Part shown: positions 1-18,420 of the stretch, piece after piece
How the letters are laid out: every line of letters begins with the position of its first letter
How positions within the stretch are numbered: the first letter of the stretch is position 1
NCBI GenBank assembly: GCA_017528205.1
Contig: JAFXPE010000032.1
Span: 76,375-140,374, forward strand
DNA: 64,000 nucleotides
Direction of reading: 5' to 3'
Source: Alphaproteobacteria bacterium
Lineage (GTDB): Bacteria; Pseudomonadota; Alphaproteobacteria; RF32; CAG-239
Program-made: the position numbers and the translations under genes
The notes under the pieces: model-generated
Databases searched by the model: none
The model's input: the letters and a program-made list of their open reading frames with translations, nothing else
What the model was told of the DNA's origin: nothing

Positions 1-3000
1 GCCGGTGCAAAAGCCGGTTGGGTTGCCGGTAATGCGTTGGCTGCTTATGAAAGCTATCAGATTGAGGCTAACAGCATGACTGAAAGTCTTTTAGACGTGA
101 CGGACAGCGACGGCAAGCCGCTTGAGGATTGGGTTGTTGACGGTGCTTCGTATGCTTATGGTGCAATCGCTGCTATGATTGAGCTTGTGCCGATGAAAGC
201 AGTAACAAATACGATTCCCGGAATGAAAAACATCACAAAGGTTGGTATTAAGCAGGCACTTAAAGAGGCAGTTAAGGATAAAACGAAACGCCAAGTCATT
301 ATGCAGATTATCAAAGACTACGGCTTAGCAGTTGCCGGCGAAAGTGCGGAAGAGGCAGCGCAACAATTTACACAAGCCGAATTTACGCGTGGCGCAAAGG
401 CTTTAATGAATGCTTTGTATGATACAGACTTTAAGCAACAATCATTTGCAAAAGATTTGGCTGAAAGTGCTGACGCTGCAATACAGGCCGGTAAAGCAAC
501 GGTAATTATGGCCGGTGCAAGCAGCGCAACACGCATAAAGCCTGAATTAAAAGCATGGCAGCGTGATCAAGAAACCAAAGAACTCAAACGCGGTCAAGAA
601 GCGAAAGCGCAATATGACGCGCAGCGTATGGACGAAGTGGCCGCCGCAGCTCAATCTTATATGCAAAAACCAAGTGCCGAACGCGCTACGCTTAAAAAAT
701 ATATGCAGCAAGCCAAGAATAGCAGCGTTTATCAAGATATTTATATGTCGGCCGATGACGCGCGCGCCGTTATGATTTCAGAGGCGGTGCAGAAAAACAA
801 GGCTGCATTGCAGGAAAGCGGTTTATATGATGATATTGAACGACAAATTGAGCAGGCTGATCAGCTTGGCACGCCGGTGCGCATTGCGTTTGAAACTTTT
901 GGCTCGGAAATTATGGCTAGTCAAGAGCTTTATGCAGCATTTAAAGACGTTATTAAAACTTATGAAAATGGTATTACCATGCAAGAATTGCGCTTGGAGG
1001 CTGAAAAGCAGCAGCAGGTGCGCAATAATATTGAGCAGGCCGCCAAAGACAATGCCAGTGATTATGAATATGCTTATCAGTATATTGTGGAGCAAGAGGC
1101 TGCCGGTGGTATTGATCAGCAGCGCAGAGGTTATACGGCAGAATTTTTGGCTAAGATCCTGACTTATATGGCTAAAGAAACGCAAACGCCGATCACGGAA
1201 GTTGTGGCTAAGTATGCACCGACATTTGAACGCTCTTTTGACGGCAGCGTCGGTGGTGGCCAGACGGTGCAAGATATTATCAGCACAATCAGAAAATCAG
1301 CGCAAGATAAGGAAGTGCAAAACCTTATGAAACGCGCCGGAGAACTCGGCAAGCGTGACGCACGCAAGATTGCAAAAATCTTAGGCAAACATTTAGATAA
1401 TGCAGCCGCCGGAGATGTGCAGCAATTTATGCGTGTTGTTAATGCAATCGGTGATATGAAACTCAATATTGAGGCAATGACTGACGAAGATATTGCAAAC
1501 AGCTTGGACAGCTACACAAAATCCGGCGATGTGCAACTGAATATTACACGCGACGACGCCGACAGAGTAAAAAGCGGTATTTTCTCGGCCAGTGAAAAGG
1601 CTTTGAGCGATATACAGGCAAACGGCCAAGACAGCGATTATGTTGTGGTTGGCGGTGGTAGAATACCGGTGCAATACCATATTGTTGAGCTTAACGATAT
1701 GGTTACATCTCACGATGACGCCGGCGCGGTTAATGAAAATTATCCGCAAGAGCTGCAGCCTCGTGACAGATCCAGAGCAGCAAGCGACACGCAAATTGCT
1801 GCGATTGTCAATAACTTTGCGCCGGAACGTGTCGGACAGGCAGAGATTGCAACAGAGGGCGCGCCGATTGTGACGCCGGAGGGGTTTGTTGCCGTCGGTA
1901 ATGGCCGCGCAATGGCTATCCGCCAAGTGTATAAAAATGCCGAAAAAGCGCAAGCATATAAAGATTATCTTGCCTCTAAAGGTTATGATCTGAATGGATT
2001 TGAGCAGCCGGTATTGGTGCGCAAGCTCGCTATTGACATGAACAATGAGCAGTTAAAGGCTTTAGTTGATGACGCAAATACAGCCGGCACCATGCAATAT
2101 TCGGACAGCGAAAATGCGCTGCGTGACGCTGATAAAATGAGCGGTAATTTGTTGGATCTGCTTGATATGGAGGCGGACATAGACAGTGCTGCAAACAGAC
2201 GTTTTTTGAACGCATTTTTTGCCGAAGTTGTGCCGACAGCCGAACGCAATGCTTATTTGGATAAGGACGATAAGATTACGCGCAAAGGTGTTGAACGTGT
2301 TGAAAATGCTATTGTGGCCAAGTTGTTACCTGACGCAAGAATGCTCTCAATTTTGGTTGAAAATCCTGACAATAATATCCGTAAAGTAACAAAAGAATTA
2401 GCAAAAGCCGCACCGGCAATCATTTCGTTTGAAAATGATATTGCCGCCGATCGGATCAATGCTGACTATTCTATTGCTGCAGATGTGTCGGGTGCGGTTG
2501 ATTTGCTTAAGCGCGCCAAAGATAGAGGGGTTACGGCTGCCGAATTTATTGCTATGCGCGATATGTTTGAGGCACCGATTTCCTCAAGCACTCAAAATAT
2601 GGTGCAACTCTTTGAAAAATCAAGTGGTGCAGCCGATTTTCTTAATAAGATCCGCAGCTATATCCGGCAGGCAGGTGAACAAGGTGATATGAGCCAAGAT
2701 AATATGTTTGGTTTGCAACCGGTGAGCAAAGCGGAGTTGTTGGATCAGTTGGCCAGACAAGAGAGTTTGCTGCAGCGCAATATTGCGCAAATATTTCAGC
2801 CGACACGGATTGAAAAAAGCAACTATATTGCAGATCTGCGCGCAGCAGAGCAATCTACCGGTAATGAGAAAAAGATCATCAGGCTCGGTGAATTGCCGGC
2901 CGTTTATAAGGCGATCGGAATACCGGCGGCAAAAGTGAATACAAGCAAAAAGGTGATCATTAAGGACACTATTGAAAAGCACGACGTGTCTTTGCAGGCG

Positions 3001-6000
3001 GTTGAGAATTTGCCGGATTTACTGGCTGATCCGATAGTGGTATTTAAGGCTTTGCCGTCGTCAACAGATCCGAATGCCTATATTGCAGTCTTGGACGCTA
3101 AAGATAAAAAAGGCTTGCAGATGATTGCTGCAATCTCACCGACGAAAAAAGAGGGAGGTTATCATTTTATTACAAGTTTTTACGGTAAAAAAACTTTGCA
3201 AAATATGGTAAATGCAGCAAACGAACTGGGTAATATTAAGTATATAAAAGAAAAGAGCCTTGTCAGTGCTGGTGAAATCCAATCTTTCCCTATTACACTA
3301 ACCGGCTCTTTAAATAATAATATACTACAAAAAGAGGATATTGTCAAGAGATCTTTTTATCAGCTGCCAAGAAAGAGCCATAAGGTGCATAGCGTATTTG
3401 ATTTAAGAGTTGGTGATAAGACTGCAATCGGCGATGTGCAAGAGATTAACAGTGAAAATCGGACAATCAAGATCAATGATCGGCTGCACTCTATGCTTAT
3501 GCTTGATACACAGATACAATATAAAGGCTTGACGGTTTATGACGGCCAAGAGCAGAATGAAGTTACTGAAACGACAGAACAAGTGCCGGCAGATGTTAAG
3601 AAAGCCACCGGTGATTTAGCAGCAGTGGCAGAACAGAAAAAGCATAATACTGAATATAACAAGGCAGCAATTTCTTATTTTGGCCTAACAAATAAACTGT
3701 CTGAAACTGGATATATTTTGACTGACGGCAGCCTTTTGGATTTAAGCGGCAAGAATTTTGGCGGATCTCCGAACATAAGATCACTTGATCATAGAGATGT
3801 TGTAAAGCCGTTAGATCGGTGGAATGCTAAAATGGAGGAATTTATTAACTCCGGCAATATTCGGTATTTGCCAGAGGGTGATAAATTGCTTATGAGCAAT
3901 ATGCCGACAGCTAAGCAGCTTAAGGTTATTGAAAATATTATCAATAAAACCGGCGGCAATATCACGATTGAGTTAATGGGCGACGCAAACCGTTGGGGAA
4001 TGAATAAAAATGACTTTTATAATGAGTATGTAAATGCGTCATTTAATCAAGTAAAGCGTGATATAAATGCTTTTTATAAAGGTGACGGTGTGCGTGAAAT
4101 AACGCGCTATTATCAGAAAATGTCAGTAACAAATGCTAAAATTGCCAAGCTACAAGAGAGTTTGCAGCAATGGGAAAAGTATTTGGCCGAAGTTATTGAA
4201 CCGAATAAATATAACTGGTATAAAGACGCGTTAGAAGATAACCGCAAGAATGCTAAGCGCAAGATTGCTCAATTTAAGCGTGATATTAAAAAAGAGCAAG
4301 AAAAGGCCAGTGTTCCGGTTGGTGATAAGCTATACGCTACACATAATATGAGTTTAGCCGGTGTAAAAGGTGCGTTAAGTCTTGGCGGCCTTGCCATGCC
4401 GTCACTTGCATTGCGTAAAGTGTCGCAAGGCAATATAAATCAATTTGGCGACATTGTATTTGTGGCTAATGAAAAAATGGTTGAGCCAAGCCGCACAACA
4501 GATGTATTTGATCGTGACGCATGGACGCCAAGCATAGCAAATTCTATGCGTTACACTCTCTTGCCAAGTGGTAATACATTCATAAAAAATGTGTTAGCCA
4601 AAGCAGGCAGAGAGCGCGATTTATCAATGTTTGTGTATAATATCAGTGAAAATCTTGATACGCCGAAGAGCAACGATATGGCGTTAGAACTCTATGCACT
4701 TGACAAAGGTATTGAGTTGGATCCGTATGAAACACTACACAGCGCGGAATATCTTGACTGGTATGACGAAAATATTATGGGCAATTCAGAGCCGTATTTG
4801 TGGACTGAAAATGCCAGTAATACGGATATGGTGGCCAAGAAATTTACGCTTGATAACATTATGAAGATCTTGAAAAAACAAGAGCGTAGTGGCGGCGGCT
4901 TTTTGGGTGAGCATGTTTGGAGTGTTAGAAACCTCTTGAATTTTATGGCCAAGAAATACAAAAACCTTGATGAAGTGCGTAAAGAAAAGCATAAACTTGT
5001 ATCTGCGGAGGAACAGGCGGATTATATACAGAAACTTGACAGCCAATTTTGGGATTTAGCCGAAGAGCTGAAAGTTGACGATTATGATTATATGTATGGT
5101 GATGATCGGTATGGTTTAGCCGTTGCGGTGGTTAATGCTGAAAATGGTGACGATACAATTAAAGATCGGTTGAAAAGCTACCATTTAGACACATCAGACG
5201 CAGCGATTGCCAAAGTGAAAGAGTTTAGTAATCAACTCAAGAACGTGTTGACTGATTATTTTGAGGTTAAACCTCGCCGCGTTGTTAATTTCAGCGAGTT
5301 TTCCGGTGTTATTATACCGGTAGGCCAAGAATATGACGCGGTGGCCAAGCAGCTTGAACATGAGTATATAACTGTTGAGCGCGCTAAAAAAGGTGACGCA
5401 GCCGATTATGAACGTGCTTTGATGAATATTCAAGCGAATGCAGAAACAACGTTTTTCCAAAATCAAAAGATTGACGCGGAGGCGTTGGGTGCTTATACGC
5501 CGCTTGAGCGTAAAATCACTCTGTTTCGCAACAACAATCTTTCAACTCTGATACATGAAAGCGGCCACTATTGGCTTGATATGCTGCAGCAGTTCGCTCA
5601 AATGCCGAACGCAAGCGAAAAACTACGCAATGATTGGGCAGTGGTAAAGGATTGGCTCGGCGTTGGTGAGGATAATGTTATCACGACAGAGCAACATGAA
5701 AAGTTTGCGCGTGGCGTTGAAAAGTATTTTTTGACGCGCAAAGCGCCCTCTTCTACTCTGGCCAAAATTTTTGACACTTTCCGGCGGTGGCTTGTTTCGG
5801 TGTATAAAGATGTAAAAGAGCTTGACGTTGATTTGAACGACGATGTTGCACGCGTGTTTGACCACATGCTTGCTAGTGAAAGTGAAATTGAAGAGTATGC
5901 GCAAGCGCAGCAATTTGCGGATATGTTGGAGAAAAGCACTAAAGGCTTAAGCAATGCAGATCTGGCCAAGTATGCCGAATTAACCGAACAGGCAATGACA

Positions 6001-9000
6001 ATGGCTAAAGATAAGCACCTGACGGACAAAGTTGCTTTAATCCTTAAAGAAGAAACAGAGGCCTATAAAGAAAAGCAAGCGCAGCTCAAGGCTCAAGTGT
6101 TGGAAGAGTGGAGCAAGGACAATTTGAATAAGGCCGTTTATATCTTGGTGACAGGCGAAGTGCCGCATGGCCACTTGGATATTAAGATAAAAACGGACGA
6201 TCTCAAGACGTTGCTCGGCGATAATTACGAACGTTACGCTATTTTTGGCGGCAAACCGATTTTTGCTGACGACGGAATAAGCCTTGTAGATTTGCAGGAA
6301 TTTACCGGCTTAACCGAAAAGCAGGTAAAGGCAGCACTTTTGACAGCCAGACAGCGTATGCGCAACTTTAAGCAAGCCTTACAGCAGCGCACGCATGAAG
6401 AGCTTGGCGATCCGGTAACCTATGACGATGTGCAAAAACAGGTTATTGCCTCTTATTATAACGACAAACGCGCTCAACTTTTAGACTTGGATCTGAAAAG
6501 TTTGGCCGGTGATGACGCGAAAAAGCAAGCAATATCCACGCAAGGCTTTAAGCAGTGGGCTGCCGACACAATCAGTCGCATTGCAATTAAAGACTTGCGG
6601 CCGGATCAATACTCAAGAGCCATGCAATTTGCCGGTGATAAGGCAATGGCTGCACTCAATCACGGACAGCGCGGCTTAGCGTATAGAATGAAAATACAGC
6701 AAATACGCAATTTTGTGTTATATCGTGAGGCGTCGGCCAGACAGGCGGAAGTTGAAAGCACATTGCGCCGGTTGAAACAGATCGGCAAGCAGGAAGTCAA
6801 CCACGATGTTGATCAAGTCTATCAAGACGCAGTGCGTGCACTCTTGAGCCGTTTTACACTCTCAAGAGCATTAACGCAAAAGGCTAAAGAACGTCTTGGC
6901 AATTTGAGTGCTTGGATCTTAGAGCAGCGCAGCAACGGCTATGATATTGTTGTGCCGGCTGATCTTTTGGAAAAAAACAACGGCACAAGCTATACAGAGC
7001 TGACGGTTGATGAATTTTTGACACTTGGTGAGAGTGTTAAGAGTTTAGTGACTAATGGCCGCGCAATCCGTCAATTTGAAATTGAGGGCGAACTGATTGA
7101 GCGCGAAAAACTGCTGCAAGAGTTTGCTGCGCAGCTGCGCAAGACTTATAAAGGCCGCGATATTCAGCGCACCGGTAAAAAGAAGTTTAGAGGTATATCT
7201 GAATTGCTTGCACCGGCTGACGCTGCGGTGGTTGGTTTTGGTGATTTTTCTAACCGGATTGACGGCTATGATACAAACGGCATTTTTCACCGGTTATTTT
7301 TACGGCCGATGACGGAGAGCCAAAACAGAGAAAACGAGTTGCTGCGTCTATATGGTGGCAAGATGAAACAACTGCAAGAGGCTTTACCGGAATGGGTAAA
7401 GAAACAACTTTTTGATAACGTTACCGGTGCAAAAGAGGTGCTTGGCGCAGACTATACGCGCGGCGAATTGATAAGTATTGCCTTAAATATGGGTAACTTA
7501 AGCAACTTGCAGCGTTTACATGACGGCAACGGATTTTCTGACGAACAGCTTGCTTGGGTTTCCGGCACGCTTAGCCACGAAGAATGGGATTATATTCAGG
7601 GCGTATGGGATACGCTTGAAAGTATGTATCCTATGCTTGCAGAGCACCATAAGAAAATGAGCGGCTTGGACATGGATCATGTTTTGGCCGCGCCGGTGGT
7701 AACGCCTTACGGTGTTTATAAAGGTGGATATTTTCCGCTCTTTTATGATAGATCGGCGGAAATGGAGGCGCGCCGCAATAACAGCCTTGAGCAAGCATTG
7801 CTTGAGAGTGATTACGGCCGCGCAACGACAAGCACCGGCTACACAAAGCAACGTCAAAATATCGTTAATGAGGCAATTAAGTTTGATCTTGGCCTGATAC
7901 ACAGACACTTGGCAAGCGCAATTCATGATCTGGCTTGGCGCGGAAATATCCGACAGATGTGGAATATGGCTAATAATCCGACATTTATGGCCACAATGGA
8001 CGGCTATTTGCATGAAAGCTATAGGCAGCAGCTTATGAAGTTAATCAAAGATCTGGCTAACTCAACAAACAGAGAGGCCAGAGAGATGACTTTTGCTGAA
8101 CGCATGGCGCGCAATATGCGTGTGGCCAGAACGACGATCGGCTTAGGTTTTAGAGTTAAGACGGCAGTTAAACAACTGACAGGCTTTGCTCAATCGGTGG
8201 CTATTATGAAACGTTACGGCCATAAAAACAAAGGCAAACATAGTGCAAGCTATTGGCTTATAAAAGGCACAAAGGCGTTTGCCTCCGATAAGACGACGCG
8301 TGAATGGTGTTTGGCTAACTCCGGTGAGCTTAGAACACGCTTGAATAACATGGACGCAAACATTGCAGAGGCCATGAAAGGTGTGGCTACAAAACAATCA
8401 AAGCTGCAAAAGATTGATGAAAATATCTACAATGCAGCGTTTTGGGCAATCGGTAAAGTTGATGTTTTCACGGCAGAGAGCACTTGGTATGCTGCATATT
8501 TGCAGGCGACAAATGACTTTGGTTACAAACATCAGGACGCGGTATTTTATGCCGACAGAGTGATGATTGAAAGTCAAGGCAGCGGCAATCTTAAAGATAA
8601 GCCGGCCATGCAACGCAAAAACGAATGGGAAAAAATGTTTTTAATGTTTTATTCGCCGTTTAGCGGAATGTATGGCCTTTGGACGTCTGTCATCAGAGAT
8701 ATACGCGACGGTAAAGAACGATCCGCAGCGTTGGCTGATTTGGCGGTGGCGATGTGCTTGCCGGCGTTTCTTGAGGCGTTGGTTGACGGTGATCAGCCGG
8801 ACAGTGATGATGATTTGGCCGAATGGCTTAAATTCTTCTTGCTGCGGCCGATTATGTTTTGGGCGTCAACAATGCCGATCTCAAGAGATTTAGCAAGCTA
8901 TTTTGAATATGGCCGCGCACAAGGCTTTTTCGGTGATACGTTTAAGGCGATCGCTGATTTGCCAAAAGTGGTGACAAGCGATAAATGGACGGCCGGCAAG

Positions 9001-9198
9001 CGTGTTAATGCGGTAATGAACGCAAGCGCGCAAATAGCCGGCACTTTCGGATTTAATTTGCCGGTTGGCGGACAGCTCGCAGACTGGACACAATGGCTGA
9101 CAGATGTGGCTGCCGGTAATATTAAAATTGAAAGTCCAATGAATGTTATCTGGGGTGTTTGGCGTGGTAAAGACGGCAAGCCTAAAGATAAAAAATAA
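1..9198 (+). CDS. Giant modular 'polyvalent' phage protein (5'-truncated, >3060 aa), likely virion-internal/injected. Putative domains: ddrB-like ParB (~1640-2700), MuF-C/PBECR-like RNase (~2870-3245), uncharacterised inserts, HExxH metallopeptidase (~5490-5880)
   Basis: Frame is open from base 1. Motifs TSHD..NENYPQELQPRDRSRAAS..GAPIV..VGNGR (ParB-like), LGELP..KH..LPDLLADPIVVF..HFITSFYGK (MuF-C/BECR-like) and STLIHESGH..QHEKFARGVEKY (zincin). Lies just upstream of tail-fibre genes. Confidence 0.75.
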   Translation, partial: AGAKAGWVAGNALAAYESYQIEANSMTESLLDVTDSDGKPLEDWVVDGASYAYGAIAAMIELVPMKAVTNTIPGMKNITKVGIKQALKEAVKDKTKRQVIMQIIKDYGLAVAGESAEEAAQQFTQAEFTRGAKALMNALYDTDFKQQSFAKDLAESADAAIQAGKATVIMAGASSATRIKPELKAWQRDQETKELKRGQEAKAQYDAQRMDEVAAAAQSYMQKPSAERATLKKYMQQAKNSSVYQDIYMSADDARAVMISEAVQKNKAALQESGLYDDIERQIEQADQLGTPVRIAFETFGSEIMASQELYAAFKDVIKTYENGITMQELRLEAEKQQQVRNNIEQAAKDNASDYEYAYQYIVEQEAAGGIDQQRRGYTAEFLAKILTYMAKETQTPITEVVAKYAPTFERSFDGSVGGGQTVQDIISTIRKSAQDKEVQNLMKRAGELGKRDARKIAKILGKHLDNAAAGDVQQFMRVVNAIGDMKLNIEAMTDEDIANSLDSYTKSGDVQLNITRDDADRVKSGIFSASEKALSDIQANGQDSDYVVVGGGRIPVQYHIVELNDMVTSHDDAGAVNENYPQELQPRDRSRAASDTQIAAIVNNFAPERVGQAEIATEGAPIVTPEGFVAVGNGRAMAIRQVYKNAEKAQAYKDYLASKGYDLNGFEQPVLVRKLAIDMNNEQLKALVDDANTAGTMQYSDSENALRDADKMSGNLLDLLDMEADIDSAANRRFLNAFFAEVVPTAERNAYLDKDDKITRKGVERVENAIVAKLLPDARMLSILVENPDNNIRKVTKELAKAAPAIISFENDIAADRINADYSIAADVSGAVDLLKRAKDRGVTAAEFIAMRDMFEAPISSSTQNMVQLFEKSSGAADFLNKIRSYIRQAGEQGDMSQDNMFGLQPVSKAELLDQLARQESLLQRNIAQIFQPTRIEKSNYIADLRAAEQSTGNEKKIIRLGELPAVYKAIGIPAAKVNTSKKVIIKDTIEKHDVSLQAVENLPDLLADPIVVFKALPSSTDPNAYIAVLDAKDKKGLQMIAAISPTKKEGGYHFITSFYGKKTLQNMVNAANELGNIKYIKEKSLVSAGEIQSFPITLTGSLNNNILQKEDIVKRSFYQLPRKSHKVHSVFDLRVGDKTAIGDVQEINSENRTIKINDRLHSMLMLDTQIQYKGLTVYDGQEQNEVTETTEQVPADVKKATGDLAAVAEQKKHNTEYNKAAISYFGLTNKLSETGYILTDGSLLDLSGKNFGGSPNIRSLDHRDVVKPLDRWNAKMEEFINSGNIRYLPEGDKLLMSNMPTAKQLKVIENIINKTGGNITIELMGDANRWGMNKNDFYNEYVNASFNQVKRDINAFYKGDGVREITRYYQKMSVTNAKIAKLQESLQQWEKYLAEVIEPNKYNWYKDALEDNRKNAKRKIAQFKRDIKKEQEKASVPVGDKLYATHNMSLAGVKGALSLGGLAMPSLALRKVSQGNINQFGDIVFVANEKMVEPSRTTDVFDRDAWTPSIANSMRYTLLPSGNTFIKNVLAKAGRERDLSMFVYNISENLDTPKSNDMALELYALDKGIELDPYETLHSAEYLDWYDENIMGNSEPYLWTENASNTDMVAKKFTLDNIMKILKKQERSGGGFLGEHVWSVRNLLNFMAKKYKNLDEVRKEKHKLVSAEEQADYIQKLDSQFWDLAEELKVDDYDYMYGDDRYGLAVAVVNAENGDDTIKDRLKSYHLDTSDAAIAKVKEFSNQLKNVLTDYFEVKPRRVVNFSEFSGVIIPVGQEYDAVAKQLEHEYITVERAKKGDAADYERALMNIQANAETTFFQNQKIDAEALGAYTPLERKITLFRNNNLSTLIHESGHYWLDMLQQFAQMPNASEKLRNDWAVVKDWLGVGEDNVITTEQHEKFARGVEKYFLTRKAPSSTLAKIFDTFRRWLVSVYKDVKELDVDLNDDVARVFDHMLASESEIEEYAQAQQFADMLEKSTKGLSNADLAKYAELTEQAMTMAKDKHLTDKVALILKEETEAYKEKQAQLKAQVLEEWSKDNLNKAVYILVTGEVPHGHLDIKIKTDDLKTLLGDNYERYAIFGGKPIFADDGISLVDLQEFTGLTEKQVKAALLTARQRMRNFKQALQQRTHEELGDPVTYDDVQKQVIASYYNDKRAQLLDLDLKSLAGDDAKKQAISTQGFKQWAADTISRIAIKDLRPDQYSRAMQFAGDKAMAALNHGQRGLAYRMKIQQIRNFVLYREASARQAEVESTLRRLKQIGKQEVNHDVDQVYQDAVRALLSRFTLSRALTQKAKERLGNLSAWILEQRSNGYDIVVPADLLEKNNGTSYTELTVDEFLTLGESVKSLVTNGRAIRQFEIEGELIEREKLLQEFAAQLRKTYKGRDIQRTGKKKFRGISELLAPADAAVVGFGDFSNRIDGYDTNGIFHRLFLRPMTESQNRENELLRLYGGKMKQLQEALPEWVKKQLFDNVTGAKEVLGADYTRGELISIALNMGNLSNLQRLHDGNGFSDEQLAWVSGTLSHEEWDYIQGVWDTLESMYPMLAEHHKKMSGLDMDHVLAAPVVTPYGVYKGGYFPLFYDRSAEMEARRNNSLEQALLESDYGRATTSTGYTKQRQNIVNEAIKFDLGLIHRHLASAIHDLAWRGNIRQMWNMANNPTFMATMDGYLHESYRQQLMKLIKDLANSTNREAREMTFAERMARNMRVARTTIGLGFRVKTAVKQLTGFAQSVAIMKRYGHKNKGKHSASYWLIKGTKAFASDKTTREWCLANSGELRTRLNNMDANIAEAMKGVATKQSKLQKIDENIYNAAFWAIGKVDVFTAESTWYAAYLQATNDFGYKHQDAVFYADRVMIESQGSGNLKDKPAMQRKNEWEKMFLMFYSPFSGMYGLWTSVIRDIRDGKERSAALADLAVAMCLPAFLEALVDGDQPDSDDDLAEWLKFFLLRPIMFWASTMPISRDLASYFEYGRAQGFFGDTFKAIADLPKVVTSDKWTAGKRVNAVMNASAQIAGTFGFNLPVGGQLADWTQWLTDVAAGNIKIESPMNVIWGVWRGKDGKPKDKK
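3246..3311 (-). ncRNA. Candidate ~66-nt antisense small RNA nested in the giant gene
   Basis: Starts ~8 nt after the -10 box. Stems AAAGAGCC/GGCUCUUU (3311-3304 with 3259-3252) and GUUAGUG/CACUGAC (3302-3296 with 3268-3262); ends in UUUUCUUUU. Confidence 0.5.
3319..3347 (-). promoter_or_regulatory. Antisense sigma70-type promoter inside the giant gene
   Basis: Minus strand reads TTGACA (3347-3342), 17-bp spacer, TATATT (3324-3319). Confidence 0.7.
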
Positions 9199-9239
9199 GG
9201 ATTTCTCCTTGCTATTATTATGTTTTGTGTTGAACAACT

Positions 9240-9265
9240 GGGCGGCGGCAACGCTGCCCTTTTTT
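9240..9265 (+). terminator. Intrinsic terminator (GCAA tetraloop)
   Basis: GGGCGGCG-GCAA-CGCTGCCC followed by T6. Confidence 0.75.
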
Positions 9266-9281
9266 ATAGAGAGGTAAAAAT

Positions 9282-10259
9282 ATGACTATTCCTGCAAGTA
9301 TGCCGGCAAAAGTTGCCTACATTGGCGATGGGGTAACAGTCAACTTTCCGGTGCCGTTTATGTATTTTGCAAATACCGACGGCACAAAACAAATAAAAGT
9401 TGTGCTTGCTGACGCAAACGGTGAAAATGAAGTGGTTAAAGTAGAAAACACGGATTTTACTATTACGGCAGCAGGTGGCACAAACGGAACACTGACAATG
9501 AATGTAGCACCGCCGGCAAATTATAAATTAACGATAGCCTACAATATACCGATTGAGCAACTGGTTGACTGGGAAGAGTTCGGCCGCTTGCCAAGCGAAA
9601 GTATTGAAAAAGCATTTGATAAGGTGACAGCGATCTTAAAGCAGCTTTATGAGGTTTTAGGCCGGTGTATTCAAGTGCCAATATCATCAAATGAACAACC
9701 TAACGATGTTTTTCAACGATTTCAGGATCAAATGGCGGAGTTGATAACTTCGGCAAATGCAGCGATTGCAGCAGCGCAAGCCTCTGCAGATAACGCAAGT
9801 GCGTCGGCTTTAGAGGCATACAATTATGCTGAAAGTGTTAAATTCGGTTTTCATCGTGAGGCTATTGCTGCCGGTGACTGGCAAGCCGCCGGTGACGTTT
9901 ATAAAATCTTTTTTCCTGACGTCGGGATTATCTCGGCAGTATATCGCACAACCTTGTCGGGCGCAGAGCGTATGGCAAATGTGGATATACAGGATAATGG
10001 CACAGGTGTCACGCTTGTTGCACAGCAGCCGTTTGCAGGTTATTGCCTGATTGCAGACGCGCAGAATGCTCAATTTGTATATCATCAACGCAGCGCAAGC
10101 AGTCGGTGGGTGATACAGCATGATTTAGGCAAATATCCGACAGTGCAATGCCTTAGAGATGACGGCGTTGTTATGGTCGGCACGGTTAAACATAACAGCA
10201 TGAACAATCTGCACATTGATTTCACGGAAGATTTGAGCGGTATTGCCGTGCTTAGCTAA
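9282..10259 (+). CDS. Tail fibre/adaptor protein with T7-tail-fibre-like N-terminal anchor
   Basis: YIGDGVTVNFPVPFMYF N-terminal motif, Ala-rich coiled coil, C-terminal WVIQHDLGKYP domain; GAGG RBS. Confidence 0.7.
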   Translation: MTIPASMPAKVAYIGDGVTVNFPVPFMYFANTDGTKQIKVVLADANGENEVVKVENTDFTITAAGGTNGTLTMNVAPPANYKLTIAYNIPIEQLVDWEEFGRLPSESIEKAFDKVTAILKQLYEVLGRCIQVPISSNEQPNDVFQRFQDQMAELITSANAAIAAAQASADNASASALEAYNYAESVKFGFHREAIAAGDWQAAGDVYKIFFPDVGIISAVYRTTLSGAERMANVDIQDNGTGVTLVAQQPFAGYCLIADAQNAQFVYHQRSASSRWVIQHDLGKYPTVQCLRDDGVVMVGTVKHNSMNNLHIDFTEDLSGIAVLS

Positions 10260-10275
10260 AAAAAGGAAAAAATAA

Positions 10276-11490
10276 ATGGCAACTCCAGTAAAAACAGATG
10301 TTGATTTTAACCAAAATCAACTCTTAAATCCAGTGGCGCACAATACCGTCACTGCTCCGAACTCGCCAAAAGCAGGCCAATTTGCCTATTTTGACGGCTC
10401 ATTTAAATTTTATAACGGCTCGGCGTGGATTGATACCGGTTTGTGCTTAGCAACAGACGCACAGGTTGCGGCAGGAACGGCCGAAAATGTTGCGGTTAAT
10501 CCAAAACAGTTGGCCACAAAAGCACCGATTGCGTCACCGGCATTTACCGGCACGCCGACAGCTCCGACGGCGGCAGTCGGCACCAATACCACACAGATTG
10601 CAACAACAGCATTTGTGCTTTCAGCAATCGCTGCCGAAGTGCTTAACGCAAAGATTTATAAAGGCGTGTGGAATACCACAGATCAAACGGATTTTTCAGG
10701 CCTTAACAGTTATAGGCCGATTAAAGCCGGTTGGTATTTTGATGTTGACGGCACTGGCTGCACGATTGACGGTATTGAATACAAAAAAGGTGATAGTATT
10801 ACATTTAGGCAGAATGTCGCTGCCGGCACAACAATCACAAGTGAGATGATTGCAAAGACAGATAATACTGAAAGTGATGATCTTGTCCGTCTTAATGTAA
10901 CGCAAACACTGACAAATAAGACAATTAACGGTAATAACAACGCATTATCTAATTTGACAATGAATATGTTTAAGAATGGTGAAATTGTCACCACTCTTGG
11001 CAATGTTGAAAAATTGGTCACAGCCGCAGCCGTTTATGCTGCTTTGGCTGATTATCAAACAAGCCTTACTTTCGGCACCGGTTTGTCGGAAGATAACGGC
11101 ACGGTAACGGTTGATCACCCATTTATTGCATTGGCTGAAAACAGTCTTGTTCGCGGTGGCAGCGGTGGCACTTTAGTTGAATTAACCGCCGGCACAAACG
11201 GTCAAGTCTTAACTATGGACGGCGGCACGCCGACATGGAAAGCGCCGGTTTCTGAAATCAAAAAACGCACTTTCACGAATCCGGCACTTACGCCGTCAAG
11301 TGGCGTTTGCACTTGGAATATTACGCACGATCTTGCAACAAAAGATTATACGGTGCGTATTTATGATGTGAGCACCGGCCAAGATGTGATTATGGATAAG
11401 ACAGCCACAGGTAACACTGCTTTAACAATTCAATTTAACAGCGCAAGCAACGTGGCGGCCGGAACATATAAGGCCGTTATTGTTGGTTAA
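10276..11490 (+). CDS. Tail fibre-like protein
   Basis: APIASPAFTGTPTAPTAAVGTNTTQIATTAFV fibre repeat, TQTLTNKT motif, C-terminal WNITHDLATKD domain; AAGGA RBS. Confidence 0.75.
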   Translation: MATPVKTDVDFNQNQLLNPVAHNTVTAPNSPKAGQFAYFDGSFKFYNGSAWIDTGLCLATDAQVAAGTAENVAVNPKQLATKAPIASPAFTGTPTAPTAAVGTNTTQIATTAFVLSAIAAEVLNAKIYKGVWNTTDQTDFSGLNSYRPIKAGWYFDVDGTGCTIDGIEYKKGDSITFRQNVAAGTTITSEMIAKTDNTESDDLVRLNVTQTLTNKTINGNNNALSNLTMNMFKNGEIVTTLGNVEKLVTAAAVYAALADYQTSLTFGTGLSEDNGTVTVDHPFIALAENSLVRGGSGGTLVELTAGTNGQVLTMDGGTPTWKAPVSEIKKRTFTNPALTPSSGVCTWNITHDLATKDYTVRIYDVSTGQDVIMDKTATGNTALTIQFNSASNVAAGTYKAVIVG

Positions 11491-11501
11491 GGAGGTGTGA
11501 T

Positions 11502-11696
11502 ATGGCCGGAGAAAATGAAAACACGACAATAGAAGTCGAAAAAATTACAACGCCGGTGACGCCGTTGCAGCAAGTCAATAAAATCAATGAGATTATTGAC
11601 GCTTTGGCAGCAATACAAATTTCTGCCGGTGCAGATATTGACGGCGGTATTATCGGGGATAGCCTTGATAATGAGATCGACGGCGGCACATTATAA
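11502..11696 (+). CDS. Small acidic phage protein with two IDGG motifs
   Basis: Strong RBS (AAGGAGGT); lies within the tail module. Confidence 0.6.
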   Translation: MAGENENTTIEVEKITTPVTPLQQVNKINEIIDALAAIQISAGADIDGGIIGDSLDNEIDGGTL

Positions 11697-11714
11697 CAAA
11701 CTTGTTTTAACCAT

Positions 11715-11746
11715 AAAGGGCGGTGGCAACATCGTCCTTTCTTTTT
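11715..11746 (+). terminator. Intrinsic terminator (GCAA tetraloop), similar to 9240-9265
   Basis: AAAGGGCGGTG-GCAA-CATCGTCCTTT then CTTTTT. Confidence 0.7.
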
Positions 11747-11760
11747 AAGGAAAAAGTAAA

Positions 11761-12816
11761 ATGACAGATACTATTGAAAGACGTATAAGAATACGACGCA
11801 ATGATAAGGCAAGCGCACGCAGCAATAATGAGGTTTTGCGTGAGGGTGAGCCGGCCTTTGAAACTGATACCGGTGATTTTAAGATCGGTGACGGCTCAAC
11901 AACTTACCGCAAGCTCTTAGGTATTCGCTCGGAGGCTGAAATTGCCGAACAGATTGCACAAGGTATTTATGAGGGCACTAACTTACAGGAAAAATTTGCT
12001 GATGAAATTGCTGAATACGGCAATGTAGCTGACTGGCTGCATGCTCGTTGCTCAGCCGGAAATTTTAAGGGAATATATCCGGGGGATTATTTCTACGATA
12101 AGACAGTGGCTCAAACTGTTGACGGCACATCTGTTGCTGCTAACCAAAACAGAAAATGTGTGATTGCCGGTATTGATATGTATTATAATGCCGGTGATAC
12201 GGCTATGCCGCACCACCTGACAATTTTTGCCGGTTTTTCGGCGGCAAACGTGGTATTTAATACAACAAATAACAATAACGGCTCAAGCTACAATGCTAAT
12301 CCGTTTAAGGCCTCAAAACTCTATGCGGTATTAAACGGTGTTAATAACAGCACCACAAACAAAATCGGTGCGGTTGGTTTTAACGGCACCGGCGGCTGCT
12401 ATCTTAATACATTTTCAAGCGCACTGCGTAACAGAATGGTTGAACAAAGATGTTTCTTGCCGGAGAGATACAGTGCGAGTGCTGCTTTAACTGATCATAC
12501 CGGTTGGAATTGGCAAGGACGCGGAATGCTCTTTGCACCGTCTGAAATAGAGGCTTATGGCTGCTTAATTCACTCAAACAAGCCAAGTATGACGCAACAA
12601 AATCCGGAGGGTTTTGGTCCATATTGCCACTGGCCGATCTTTAAGACTGCCGGACAGCGTGGCCGTTTGATGAATGGGCGCACTTACTTTTGGCTCTCCT
12701 CTGTTGGCGGTGGAGGCTCGTCTAACGCTTGCATTGTCACCGGCCACGGCAATGCGAACTGCATCAACACGTCGAACACGCTCATACGCGCGCCGCTCTG
12801 CTTTCATATCGCATAG
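11761..12816 (+). CDS. DGR target protein: receptor-binding/tropism-determinant-like, Mtd_N-like N-terminus and C-terminal variable (probably C-type-lectin fold) domain
   Basis: N-terminal IRIRR..NEVLREGEPAFETDTGDFKIGDG motif; 3' end contains the VR matching the TR. Confidence 0.85.
   Translation: MTDTIERRIRIRRNDKASARSNNEVLREGEPAFETDTGDFKIGDGSTTYRKLLGIRSEAEIAEQIAQGIYEGTNLQEKFADEIAEYGNVADWLHARCSAGNFKGIYPGDYFYDKTVAQTVDGTSVAANQNRKCVIAGIDMYYNAGDTAMPHHLTIFAGFSAANVVFNTTNNNNGSSYNANPFKASKLYAVLNGVNNSTTNKIGAVGFNGTGGCYLNTFSSALRNRMVEQRCFLPERYSASAALTDHTGWNWQGRGMLFAPSEIEAYGCLIHSNKPSMTQQNPEGFGPYCHWPIFKTAGQRGRLMNGRTYFWLSSVGGGGSSNACIVTGHGNANCINTSNTLIRAPLCFHIA
12674..12805 (+). repeat. DGR variable repeat (VR) incl. 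GC-rich IMH region
   Basis: 123/132 identical to 13326-13457; all 9 differences lie opposite TR adenines. Confidence 0.97.
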
Positions 12817-12840
12817 CGGAGCGAACGCTTAAAAATAACA

Positions 12841-12865
12841 GCGGCCGGTTGATAAAGCCGGCCGC
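12841..12865 (+). promoter_or_regulatory. DGR target-recognition hairpin/cruciform downstream of VR
   Basis: GCGGCCGG...CCGGCCGC 8-bp GC stem, extendable by TT/AA (with a bulged G) around a GATA (GRNA-type) loop; 24 nt after the target stop codon. Confidence 0.75.
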
Positions 12866-12899
12866 ATTGGTGAAACATTATTTTTCTTGAGGTTATAAA

Positions 12900-13316
12900 A
12901 TGGTTGTCTATGCAAAAGACAGAAAAGAAACAGCTACACAATACATTATTACGGCGCAAAATTTACAGGAAAAGGTTTTGCGTTATATGATGAATGAAAA
13001 GCGCGTGCCTAAAAAATGGCGTTATCTGTTAGCGCATGCAGCTATTAAAAAGGTTTGTGAATTGGTTGATAATGTGATCGCCTCAAATAAAACTTACCCA
13101 AGCAATGAGGATAAGCTCAAGCTGCGCAAGGATTATCTTGATAAGGCGGTGGTTAATTGTTATCAACTGGGTAATCATCTACAGCTTATGATACGTGTGA
13201 TTGATACCGTTGACGCAAACAGCCTTAAGGAAATTTCAAGTTTGCTGCTCGATGAAATTGAACTTTTACGCAAAACGCATAAAAACTCTCATATTGTTGG
13301 GCAGCAAGAGGTTTAA
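12900..13316 (+). CDS. avd: DGR accessory variability determinant (Avd-like four-helix bundle)
   Basis: 138-aa basic helical protein between VR and TR, with PKKWRYLL..I and AN/SN..Y..R patterns typical of Avd. Confidence 0.8.
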   Translation: MVVYAKDRKETATQYIITAQNLQEKVLRYMMNEKRVPKKWRYLLAHAAIKKVCELVDNVIASNKTYPSNEDKLKLRKDYLDKAVVNCYQLGNHLQLMIRVIDTVDANSLKEISSLLLDEIELLRKTHKNSHIVGQQEV

Positions 13317-13325
13317 TGTTGTATC

Positions 13326-13457
13326 ATGGGCGCACTAACTTTTGGCTCTCCTCTGTTAGCGGTGGAGGCTCGTCTAACGCTTGCAATGTCAACGGCAACG
13401 GCAATGCGAACTGCAACAACACGTCGAACACGAACATACGCGCGCCGCTCTGATTTC
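13326..13457 (+). ncRNA. DGR template repeat (TR)
   Basis: Non-coding, A-rich copy of VR with 11 AAY codons in the VR frame; between avd and RT. Confidence 0.95.
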
Positions 13458-13686
13458 GTTTTATGCTTGTCTTAGTAGGCCGATCCGGCTGAAAACAATG
13501 CGATTAAATGAAAGGAATATTAAACCTCGCCGAATTGGCAAATAAGAGTTTTGACGCTGACCTGCGGACGCCTCTGAAAAATTGAAGTTGCATAGTGAGC
13601 TATCGTGACGGAACGCTCATTTTATGCAGGTGCAGTATGTGGTATAAATCCGTCAAGAGCCATGCAAGACTTAAAAGGGGTATTTG

Positions 13687-14796
13687 ATGACACGAAGAAA
13701 AAGAAGATATGAACGCCGCAAAGCAGCGCGTGAGGCCAAGCGCGCTGCTTTTCTGGCTAAGTATGACAATTATGATTTGGTATGTGACCGGAATAATCTT
13801 TTTGCTGCAGCAGATATGGCTAAAAAGCATGTGATGTGGAAAGGCACGGTGCAGCGATGGAGTATTGAGCAGCTTTTGAATACTGAAAAGCTATATCGCG
13901 ACTTAAAGGCCGGCAAAGATGTGCGCAGAGGATTTGCAAAGTTTAAGGTATGTGAACGCGGTAAAACGCGCAATATATCGGCAGTGCGCTTTTATGAGCG
14001 TGTTGTGCAAAAGGCTTTGTGTAAATATGTGTTATATCCGGTATATACAAAATCGGTATTGTTTGATAATGCTGCCAGTCAAAAAGGTAAAGGCACAAAG
14101 TTTGCCGCCGACAGAATGATCCGGCACTTAAGCCGGCATTTTAATCGGTATGGCCAAGCCGGCTATGCGGTGCTTGTGGACTTCAAAGGATATTTTGAGA
14201 ATATCGATCACGATGTAGCCAAAGAGATATATCGGCAAAAGTTTAAGGATAAGCGATTGCTGAAATTGATTGATGACTTTATTGACGCTTATGGTGTTAA
14301 AGGTTTGGGACTTGGATCAGAAACAAGTCAAATGCACGCAATTTACTATCCGAATAAGATCGATCATGCGATAGTTGAAACGCATGGCCATGATAAAGTT
14401 ATGTTTGGCCGGTATATGGACGACAGCTACATTTTGACAAGAGAGAAAAAGACGGCAATCAGAATGCTTGACAAGATCCGTGACTGGTGCAGGCGGCTGC
14501 GGATCACGCTGTCACCAAAGAAAACAATGATTGTCCGTATTAAAGACGGTTTGAAGTGGCTCAAAACAATCTTTTACCTGACGGCCACCGGCAAGATTAT
14601 AAAAAAGCCGGAGCATAAGAGTGTGGTTAGGGAGCGGCGAAAACTAAAGAAACAAATTAACCTTTTGCGCGGCAATGCTTTAGGCAAAGCAGAGCTTACG
14701 CAATCTTTTGAGAGTTGGGCAGGCAGCATGAAACGGCGCAATGCGCGCTTGTCCGTGTGGAATATGCGCCGGTTTTTATGGAGTATAATGTCATGA
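13687..14796 (+). CDS. DGR reverse transcriptase
   Basis: VLVDFKGYFENIDH, GLGLGSETSQ (SQ motif of DGR RTs), RYMDD catalytic motif; no maturase/endonuclease tail. Start is ATG 13687 or TTG 13684, after AAGGGG. Confidence 0.95.
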   Translation: MTRRKRRYERRKAAREAKRAAFLAKYDNYDLVCDRNNLFAAADMAKKHVMWKGTVQRWSIEQLLNTEKLYRDLKAGKDVRRGFAKFKVCERGKTRNISAVRFYERVVQKALCKYVLYPVYTKSVLFDNAASQKGKGTKFAADRMIRHLSRHFNRYGQAGYAVLVDFKGYFENIDHDVAKEIYRQKFKDKRLLKLIDDFIDAYGVKGLGLGSETSQMHAIYYPNKIDHAIVETHGHDKVMFGRYMDDSYILTREKKTAIRMLDKIRDWCRRLRITLSPKKTMIVRIKDGLKWLKTIFYLTATGKIIKKPEHKSVVRERRKLKKQINLLRGNALGKAELTQSFESWAGSMKRRNARLSVWNMRRFLWSIMS

Positions 14797-17013: not shown

Positions 17014-17203
17014 TGTTGAATTAAAAGACGAAGAACGTCAAAAATGTGAGATTTGGACACGCGTCATGGGGTATCATCGGCCGGTGTCGGAATTTAACAA
17101 AGGTAAAAAAAGCGAATATTACAGCCGCAAATGTTTTTGTGAAAGCAAAGCGATTGCCGGTATGGAGGCTCATGACGCTGCACCTTTACTTGCAGCCGAA
17201 TGA
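17003..17203 (+). CDS. Stand-alone NrdD C-terminal (glycyl-radical) domain protein
   Basis: CEIWTRVMGYHRPVSEFNKGKKSE matches the class III RNR glycyl-radical segment; GGAGG RBS. Confidence 0.75.
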   Translation: MSDNVELKDEERQKCEIWTRVMGYHRPVSEFNKGKKSEYYSRKCFCESKAIAGMEAHDAAPLLAAE

Positions 17204-18420
17204 TTATTTAAGACAGCGGTGGCTGCCGTGAATTTGTTGGGTGCAAGGTGAGCATAACGCATTGTCATTGCAAGAGTTTTATGGCCAAGTAATTCTTTAA
17301 CGGTGTAAAGATCAACGCCGGCCATGACAAGCCAAGACGCAAATGTGTGCCGCAACGTATGGAATACCACGCGCAGCTGCCGGTCTGTTATATTTTGATT
17401 AAACAGCCGGTCGGCAATTTCCTGATATTGGTCTGACAACTCATAAATAGGTGATCCGGTATAACTCTGAAAAATATGTTGTTCTCCGGTGAGCTGCAAC
17501 TCTACGATCCGGCGTTTTAATATTTCAATCATGTCATTTGTGAGCGGCAGGTTGCGGCTCTTATGATTTTTTGTTTTGCGTATTGTGAGAAAACCGGTGC
17601 TAAAATTTACATCAGCCGCGCGCAGGTTAAAAAGTTCTCCCTCACGGCAGCCACAATTTAACGCAATAACTGCGATTTCATACGTTTGATTTGTTTGGTG
17701 GCGTTTATAATATTCATAGCCGAATGTATGTTGTCCGGTAACTTTAATTTTATTTAACTCTTGCAGCAGCAGTGCGGCCTCGTCATGACTTAAAAAACGC
17801 AGCCTTTCATTATCTACCGGCAAAAGGTCAATATTATCCATAGGATTTGTGCTTATCTTACCTCTGGCAATAGCCATATTGAAAAGGTGGCGGATTAACT
17901 TCAAAACATGATTTATTGTTGCAGGCGCATATTTTGACTCTCCAGAGGCTTTTTTTGTTTCAAGCATAGTCTGCTTTATTTTTTCAACTTCATCAATTCT
18001 GACGCAATTTAGCGGCAAATAACCAATATGTTTTTTTATATGGTTATCATAATTTTGCCGTTCGTTAATCACTCCTTTATCAGATTTAACGCCTTTTTGT
18101 GTGACCTCATACTGATTATAAAACTCATCAACAGTCATATTTGCGGATTCGCGCGCGGTGGTGACGGCAGCTTGCTGCTCATACTTCTCTTTGAGCGAAC
18201 GATAGCCGGTGCCTTTTTTAATGTTCTCACGCAAGATCTCAATTTCAGCTGCGGCTTTTGTTTCAGTATAACCGGCACTTTCCCACCCATAACCCTCTTG
18301 CTTTCTTATGCCATTATCGGTATAGCGCAAAATAAAATACCGATCTTTGCGTATGCCGTTTTTGCGTGTATCATGTTCGCGGTAATAAACGCCTTTGTAT
18401 TTCGTTTTGAGTGTTTTCAT
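17170..18420 (-). CDS. int: Prophage tyrosine integrase
   Basis: Catalytic motifs GCREGE (R), KTK (K), HTLRH, LLGH and TMRYAH; N-terminal arm-binding region; adjacent to att site. Confidence 0.95.
   Translation of the reverse strand: MKTLKTKYKGVYYREHDTRKNGIRKDRYFILRYTDNGIRKQEGYGWESAGYTETKAAAEIEILRENIKKGTGYRSLKEKYEQQAAVTTARESANMTVDEFYNQYEVTQKGVKSDKGVINERQNYDNHIKKHIGYLPLNCVRIDEVEKIKQTMLETKKASGESKYAPATINHVLKLIRHLFNMAIARGKISTNPMDNIDLLPVDNERLRFLSHDEAALLLQELNKIKVTGQHTFGYEYYKRHQTNQTYEIAVIALNCGCREGELFNLRAADVNFSTGFLTIRKTKNHKSRNLPLTNDMIEILKRRIVELQLTGEQHIFQSYTGSPIYELSDQYQEIADRLFNQNITDRQLRVVFHTLRHTFASWLVMAGVDLYTVKELLGHKTLAMTMRYAHLAPNKFTAATAVLNNHSAASKGAAS

Follow-up and report, generated by a model that had tools for sequence, protein, structure and literature searches.

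Several RNA systems of phages and plasmids come close to the element reported here. The OOP RNA of phage lambda and the sar RNA of phage P22 have constitutive-looking promoters, are about 65-80 nt long, consist mostly of a hairpin with a U-tail, and run antisense to phage coding regions, either inside them or at their ends. The type I toxin-antitoxin pairs SymE/SymR and RalR/RalA, often found in prophages, set a cis- or near-cis-encoded antisense RNA against a nuclease-type toxin gene; type III systems such as ToxIN combine an RNase with a structured RNA in tandem arrays, which lie upstream of the toxin on the same strand; and FinP/FinO and the plasmid copy-control YUNR RNAs are long imperfect hairpins whose 7-nt loop contains Y-U-N-R. 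The element in question lies on the minus strand (3347-3240) of a giant phage gene in a 64,000-nt stretch of DNA (the window; assembly GCA_017528205.1, contig JAFXPE010000032.1, positions 76,375 to 140,374) from an Alphaproteobacteria bacterium of the RF32/CAG-239 lineage. Comparison with homologues shows it to be a conserved, self-contained small-RNA gene with a sigma-70-type promoter, a predicted hairpin transcript of about 65 nt, and a U-tract end, set in the codons of a likely disordered linker that follows MuF_C, a predicted RNase domain.

The window unit has all the OOP- and sar-like traits named above. Unlike OOP and sar, it sits deep inside a virion gene of about 10 kb, is tied to one domain, and is part of an in-frame cassette, and units of its type recur in phages of different bacterial phyla and in free-standing tandem arrays. 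It is like SymE/SymR and RalR/RalA in that the antisense RNA overlaps the mRNA of a putative toxin, but that toxin is one domain of a 3363-amino-acid polyprotein and not a small, separately translated, usually membrane-active peptide, and the RNA overlaps the linker after the domain and not a ribosome-binding site. With type III systems it shares the pairing of a (here predicted) RNase with a structured RNA and, in E. coli prophages, tandem arrays; in place of a same-strand repeat RNA that precedes the RNase gene and is separated from it by a terminator, however, the window hairpin is single, antisense and nested, and the arrays occur only elsewhere, away from MuF_C. The long imperfect hairpin and its YUNR-type 7-nt loop recall FinP, as does a ProQ/FinO-family gene near the free-standing arrays, whereas the target here would be the middle of a coding region and not a leader, and no chaperone gene was seen beside the window unit.

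Polyvalent proteins, of which the window gene encodes an example, are thought to be injected arsenals. In the available part of PMC5512222, MuF-C is described as a PBECR domain, that is, a predicted BECR-fold RNase, and polyvalent proteins with PBECR or MuF-C domains are presented that match the window protein, where ddrB-ParB, MuF_C and PBECR5 occur together among virion genes. That part of the paper does not address how a phage or lysogen tolerates RNase domains in such proteins, and its main text contains no occurrence of 'antisense', 'promoter', 'small RNA' or 'noncoding', so that the RNA unit is not part of the family as described. A small-RNA gene written in linker codons, and carried along when domains are shuffled, would be a compact answer to the problem of tolerance.

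The antisense promoter of the window, TTGACA-17-TATATT, matches the sigma-70 consensus at 11/12 positions and is the top promoter-like site of positions 1-12000 in a consensus scan (Table 1). Promoter-like sites overall are not enriched in these 12 kb (26, compared with 22.3 +/- 4.2 in shuffles), and because this total is ordinary a single such site proves nothing by itself. From the predicted +1 at about 3311, the minus strand reads AAAGAGCC...GGCUCUUUUCUUUU. The 66-nt RNA (minus strand 3311-3246) has a predicted folding energy of -24.7 kcal/mol (z -4.68), which none of 200 dinucleotide shuffles equaled; 500 synonymous recodings that keep the peptide also all fold less stably, as does the sense strand (-17.3 kcal/mol, z -3.48). 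The stem ends at 3252 and is followed by UCUUUU, the layout of an intrinsic terminator (stable hairpin plus U-run), which a simple terminator scan with narrower loop and stem rules did not report. The original prediction had given the letters and coordinates of promoter, hairpin and U-tract correctly, and had placed all three inside the open reading frame (ORF), after the MuF_C/PBECR domain and before the next module junction (~3379-3386), where they indeed lie. Its hairpin anatomy holds for the 8-bp outer stem, the 7-nt loop and the U-tail; the middle stem, described as 7 bp, has 8, and the inner stem, interrupted by a bulge, has 4+2 bp. The genome to which the window belongs has one copy of the 131-nt unit.

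Table 1. Positions of the features discussed, in window coordinates unless another sequence is named.
Feature	Position	Strand	Remarks
Giant polyvalent virion-protein gene of prophage	1..9198	+	Cut by window start; open frame of 3363 amino acids in the genome
Swappable in-frame cassette, MuF_C domain and antisense RNA unit	2779..3378	+	G027 comparison, strain contigs
MuF_C (PF18819), predicted PBECR-type RNase	2962..3255	+	K-H motif (EKHD) and S-x-Y-G-K motif
U-rich tail UCUUUUAUAUAC	3240..3251	-	Likely intrinsic termination point; overlaps Lys-rich end of MuF_C
Hairpin	3252..3311 (60 nt)	-	Begins at predicted +1 (~3311); 8-bp outer and 8-bp middle stems, 7-nt apical loop GAUUGGA
-10 hexamer TATATT	3319..3324	-	Plus-strand letters aatata; 17-nt spacer from -35
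-35 hexamer TTGACA	3342..3347	-	Plus-strand letters tgtcaa
35-nt DNA island	3313..3347		Near-identical between modules with proteins ~30-35% identical (DNA alignment)
Five-hairpin tandem array	L031 2304-2707 (E. coli strain 4, NZ_CP045209.1)	Early-gene strand	Non-coding DNA, shared loop
Five-hairpin tandem array	L078 5493-5880 (viral contig)		Non-coding DNA, shared loop

Two small observations were made at the unit itself. A second promoter-like site, CTGACA-16-TATACT (10/12), lies on the minus strand at 3266-3239 and overlaps the 3' arm of the hairpin and K-Y-I codons. Its TATAC part recurs in lineages L005 and L006 and not in L007, and pairs with the -10 region in longer folds. Position 3314, 5 nt downstream of the -10 hexamer, is G instead of A in three related sequencing runs (X7, X11, X14), which changes Asn to Ser in the linker and leaves the hexamers and hairpin unaffected.

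What makes the unit look like a real hidden small-RNA gene is that it recurs with the domain in many unrelated phages. Lineages found without use of the RNA region form a set of five, the window being one, and the unit stands at the same place after MuF_C in 5/5. A core peptide pattern led to lineages L010-L015 and L018, which have TTGACA-17-TACAGT together with a TG upstream, then a hairpin and U7, and L020, from a high-GC genome found with a Pfam hidden Markov model (HMM), has TTGACG-17-TACATT, a hairpin and UUUUCU. A tblastn search with the core domain led to Pasteurella phage Pmp11 (TTGACT-17-TAATAT, hairpin, UUUUUCUUU), and one with the L006 core domain to phage 933W and relatives (188 phage records; TTGCGA-17-TATTTT, hairpin, UUAAUUUUUCU). 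Four further stem versions (L005/L009; L006; L007/L008/L016/L017; L025/L027) were found through a promoter-region motif and are hence promoter-biased. U-rich tails follow the hairpin in L005, L006, L007, L010, L014, L020, Pmp11 and 933W. The link between unit and MuF_C holds across phyla and with differing neighboring domains. Three partial or weak MuF_C matches (L021, L022, L023), set apart as partial after their HMM ranges had been seen, lack the unit (0/3). Nucleotide searches with 2500-4000 against isolate phages and plasmids gave no match, a peptide-degenerate pattern for the linker motif NNNILQKEDIV had no match in viral contigs, and Rfam (4227 covariance models) had no relevant match at E <= 1 in L001 (which holds the window unit), L005, L006, L028, L029 or L031.

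In most versions a 4-bp G+C stem closes the 7-nt loop AAYUGRA (apical GGGC-AAYUGRA-GCCC), and UUGG is present in the 7-nt loop of 7/11 lineages not chosen by their loop. The canonical loop motif was not found in the window's own genome, even with one mismatch allowed. Viral contigs were scanned by the loop motif alone, which gave at least 120 stretches, and 80 loci were analyzed. These loci hold 83 motif occurrences (five at locus edges); 69 fold as a hairpin by the set rule, and 52 lie within ORFs that match a MuF_C profile (built from alignment A3), giving 27 distinct embedded hairpins. A promoter with at least 8/12 consensus matches within 20 nt, always with a 17-nt spacer, accompanies 22 of the 27, compared with 5.4% of 2700 control windows taken from the same loci, and nine reach 10/12 (0.2% of controls). 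In some MuF_C modules (L071 6499-6583, L089 1883-1967, and L040) two loop-motif hairpins stand 69 nt apart within the reading frame, an in-frame tandem duplication of the RNA element. On the strength of its recurrence in homologues, the unit is not chance, and it is very probably a functional antisense transcription unit tied to MuF_C.

The copy in E. coli O157 Sakai gene ECs_1242 (phage Sp5) is identical to that of 933W (NC_002695.2, 1301649 to 1301517, minus strand) and sits in ORF80 (ECs1242), the 2,793-amino-acid ORF that is needed for infectious particles of this Shiga toxin 2 (Stx2) phage according to the available part of PMC5155283. Literature on PBECR, on MuF with antisense RNA and prophage, and on ECs1242/Z1495 yielded no published description of the unit; supplements on O157 Sakai small RNAs may list the E. 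coli copy. The main texts on the EcOnc and sRNA110 small RNAs give no coordinates, and one uncharacterized Sp5 small RNA may be identical to the ECs_1242 antisense RNA.

The promoter has also left its mark on the codons. A codon alignment of nine lineages was used, in which only the 32 pairs with core identity below 60% were counted. Where two lineages have the same residue, they share the codon in 153/191 cells over the promoter (0.80), compared with 459/1101 in the domain core and 72/171 over the hairpin (both 0.42). All nine aligned lineages keep TTGAC through the codons xxT GTC AAx, with Val-178 encoded as GTC in each, as well as an exact -10 TAnAnT and a spacer of 17; among distant lineages the spacer sequence varies, while the hexamers and the 17-nt spacing persist. 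Because synonymous sites are frozen over the hexamers, the peptide motif NNNILQKEDIV is best seen as the shadow of the promoter. The linker peptide, a promoter in disguise in the original prediction, lies in a segment with a predicted local distance difference test score (pLDDT) below 50 and is most likely conserved because of the promoter. The unit is a clear case of dual coding, in which a peptide motif is kept because the opposite strand is a promoter.

The stems differ wholly between lineages, yet each version folds. When five E. coli-type hairpins are aligned with MAFFT, free of gaps and without fitting to any structure, 98.6% of cells pair and 7/10 outer pairs have compensatory changes (0/500 shuffles as high), whereas slid controls pair at 29-58%. 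Used as the seed of a covariance model, this alignment gave 57 matches, 29 of them distinct. In the alignment of these 29, which is fitted to the model and thus leans towards it, 96.4% of 394 cells pair (slid controls 31-45%), 10/10 outer pairs are compensated (0/500 shuffles), and both sides are changed in 95 cells, compared with 27.2 +/- 4.5 in shuffles. RNAalifold on a MAFFT alignment of 12 hairpins recovered the apical stem alone, because the outer stems were out of register. The comparative test proposed for the original prediction, that promoter, hairpin and covarying stems should be conserved while the encoded peptide diverges, came out in its favor.

These hairpins also bear on which strand is folded. 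Among ten stem substitutions between close relatives, pairing survives on the antisense strand in eight and on the sense strand in two, and six of the eight break pairing on the sense strand. The antisense fold is the more stable one in 19/27 viral hairpins (sign test p = 0.05, with sequences that are not independent), and the sense fold is the weaker one also in the window, L005 and L006. G.U pairs across the 27 number 61 in the antisense fold and 25 in the sense fold, and these wobble pairs suggest that it is the antisense strand that folds. A structure of the sense mRNA, such as a translational pause between domains, or plain chance is hardly credible: the sense strand does fold and the region does code a domain boundary, but that fold is the weaker in the cases just given, most antisense-preserving substitutions destroy it, a pause site needs no antisense promoter, and chance cannot yield 22/27 against a background of 5.4%.

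Domain and unit are inherited and exchanged together as an in-frame cassette, as the original prediction had it and as comparison of relatives shows. Same-genus genome G027 has an orthologous giant gene whose flanks are 85% and 81% identical in amino acid sequence, with a LPD23/metallopeptidase-like module in place of nt 2779 to ~3378, so that domain and unit have been swapped out together; this replacement module has AT-rich promoter-like sites, none of them with a hairpin at +1 and a U-run. Among contigs of related strains, those of run X18 part from the window at 2769, where their letters become those of the G027 type, and in run X11 a branch point lies at 3386, by the right-hand module junction. 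A second contig of run X14 carries a divergent version that realigns with the window solely at 3313-3348. Across the end of the cassette (3001-3450) the G+C content falls from about 0.46 to 0.35, which fits a module of foreign origin. No conserved antisense ORF that might be a gene for protein immunity lies behind the unit, in line with the original prediction, which saw no such gene. A hidden immunity protein encoded by an ORF behind the terminator was considered and rejected, as L007 and L027 have no ORF of at least 50 amino acids there.

The MuF_C domain scores 64.5 bits in Pfam (cut-off 27.6) and 68.5 bits for the cassette alone. Its K-H motif is kept, with the His invariant in 9/9 lineages, as is a Ser/Thr before x-Y/H-G/S/P-K. 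An AlphaFold2 model from a nine-sequence alignment (mean pLDDT 69.4) has values of 74-88 over module residues 12-135 (nt 2875-3246) and below 50 over residues 142-184 (nt 3265-3393), so that most of the hairpin and the whole promoter lie in DNA coding for a probably unstructured linker. A Foldseek search of the model against PDB gave no significant match (best E 0.066; a contact-dependent inhibition toxin chain at E 0.28). That MuF_C is an RNase is predicted from Pfam and from the available part of PMC5512222.

Free-standing copies of the hairpin came to light through a 61-nt match, which led to an intergenic stretch of E. coli prophage L031. This lambdoid prophage has a promoter-like TTGCTC-16-TATAAT, five tandem loop hairpins, and a final hairpin with U7, flanked on one side by perC-, proQ/finO- and ssb-like genes and on the other by the gene for antiterminator Q; the ProQ/FinO-family gene is two genes upstream of the arrays and the ssb gene three. 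The chromosome that bears the L031 array has no MuF_C match, and Pfam assigns no family to the genes next to the E. coli array. In 112/5426 complete E. coli genomes the array query is covered to 80% or more. Single repeats of the array are nearest to different MuF_C alleles (60/61 to 933W, 45/52 to L032, 46/58 to L035, and 45/56 to L071). Because the loop is kept here, where nothing is coded, the RNA or DNA itself is under selection. The arrays hint at RNA-based interference between prophages.

As to function, we infer an antitoxin or silencer role. The account with about an even chance of being correct is a kissing-loop antisense RNA of the classical kind, which would put the giant mRNA out of action and could reach related phages in trans. 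By geometry the RNA is the exact complement of nt 3246-3311 in the sense mRNA. Contact would begin between the 7-nt apical loop (consensus AAYUGRA, with the YUNR-type UUGG) and its counterpart loop on the sense mRNA, pairing would extend to the stems, and the giant transcript would suffer a cut or a block immediately behind the part that codes for the RNase. By the logic of type I antitoxins, the lysogen would in this way be spared harm from accidental production of the RNase module. Related phages that enter the cell would be met in trans by the same RNA, and the free-standing hairpin arrays of other prophages would be a multi-allele form of this action. Taken as a whole, the interpretation given in the original prediction is partly supported.

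Several points weigh against silencing by antisense pairing. Expression of the antisense RNA is itself predicted from sequence, and the RNase activity and toxicity of MuF_C are likewise predictions, with no significant PDB match for its model. The promoter of the Stx phages is weak (TTGCGA-17-TATTTT, 8/12), and five of the 27 viral hairpins fall short of the promoter criterion (in one the promoter is located further upstream, two are tandem second copies, and two are unexplained). A U-rich tail is found in 13-14 of the 27 by a crude rule, and the U-run is displaced in L025 and L027. A model made from E. coli-type hairpins did not recognize the window hairpin at E <= 0.01. For silencing, an antisense RNA would be oddly placed 3 kb into a 10-kb ORF. 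Lastly, gut phages of Firmicutes type share the conserved loop sequence with phages of Pasteurella and E. coli, and this conservation, together with an array in a chromosome without MuF_C, accords with protein binding or another role in trans no less than with antisense pairing.

The main rival is accordingly a direct RNA inhibitor of the RNase, similar to type III antitoxins, which is kept alive by the arrays and by loop conservation and which we regard as unlikely. The hairpin, through its apical stem-loop, would bind the MuF_C RNase or serve as its pseudo-substrate; the RNA would keep the domain inactive in the producing cell, and the arrays would mop up RNase injected by superinfecting phages. 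Binding and cleavage are purely hypothetical here. The sequence of the apical stem-loop is kept while the outer stems change completely, but in coding copies this is confounded by the conserved peptide G-L-Q-L-P, and the loops of L005, L007 and L010 are different. The loop is also kept in the non-coding five-hairpin arrays, which recall the antitoxin repeats of ToxIN and one of which is in the chromosome without MuF_C, whereas the window RNA, single-copy, antisense and nested, is unlike known type III loci. Read as letters, the loop triplet YUG plus purine matches two glutamine anticodons, although loop position 2 is A and not the U of anticodon loops. In a single case, the MuF-C domain of Mu gp30, which lacks the K-H motif and is called inactive in the available part of PMC5512222, the unit was not found. 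The broader idea that MuF_C and an RNA antidote nested in the toxin's own frame form a new toxin-antitoxin cassette shuffling between polyvalent proteins, with the arrays as an allele-by-allele RNA defense, is put forward tentatively and is rather improbable. If it were true, the arrays would act against superinfecting phages, among them Stx phages, by neutralizing either their RNase or their essential giant virion gene.

A phage small RNA that acts in trans on host or other phage genes with the help of Hfq or ProQ, comparable to the numerous small RNAs of Stx prophages and with the MuF_C linker as a tolerated landing place, is improbable. The shape is suitable (a stable 5' hairpin, a U-tail and a consensus promoter), several uncharacterized Hfq-bound small RNAs of Sp5 are reported in the available part of PMC7873438, and arrays lie two genes from a ProQ/FinO-family gene. 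Against this stand the link to MuF_C across phyla and among different neighboring domains, the loss of the unit together with the domain in G027, and stems that vary freely and so leave no conserved single-stranded seed beyond the loop.

An element that acts at the DNA level with no RNA product, either a recombination joint for module shuffling or a structure in single-stranded DNA, is very unlikely. The island at 3313-3348 is the sole part that realigns between divergent cassettes (run X14), module breakpoints fall within 40 nt of it, and arrays lie three genes downstream of an ssb gene. Distant lineages, however, keep just the two hexamers and their 17-nt spacing while the spacer sequence changes, a U-tract follows the hairpin, and G.U-only substitutions favor a folded RNA on one strand.

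The gene at 1..9198 matches ddrB-ParB (residues 553-675), MuF_C (988-1085) and PBECR5 (1441-1535) in Pfam, and its product, with several unrelated conflict domains in one ORF and a phage context, fits a polyvalent protein. No antisense promoter of at least 9/12 was found within 4300-4800, where PBECR5 was searched. Genes downstream match tail-fiber families, a reverse transcriptase, an endolysin and an integrase, which assigns the giant gene to a prophage. Just past the prophage integrase (17170-18420), a second giant ORF of 2790 amino acids is located on the minus strand (18717-27089) and has no Pfam family at E <= 0.001. By the tail genes (11761-14796) lies a likely diversity-generating retroelement, which includes a 351-amino-acid protein whose N-terminus matches Mtd_N (major tropism determinant), together with a reverse transcriptase (RVT_1) at 13684-14796.

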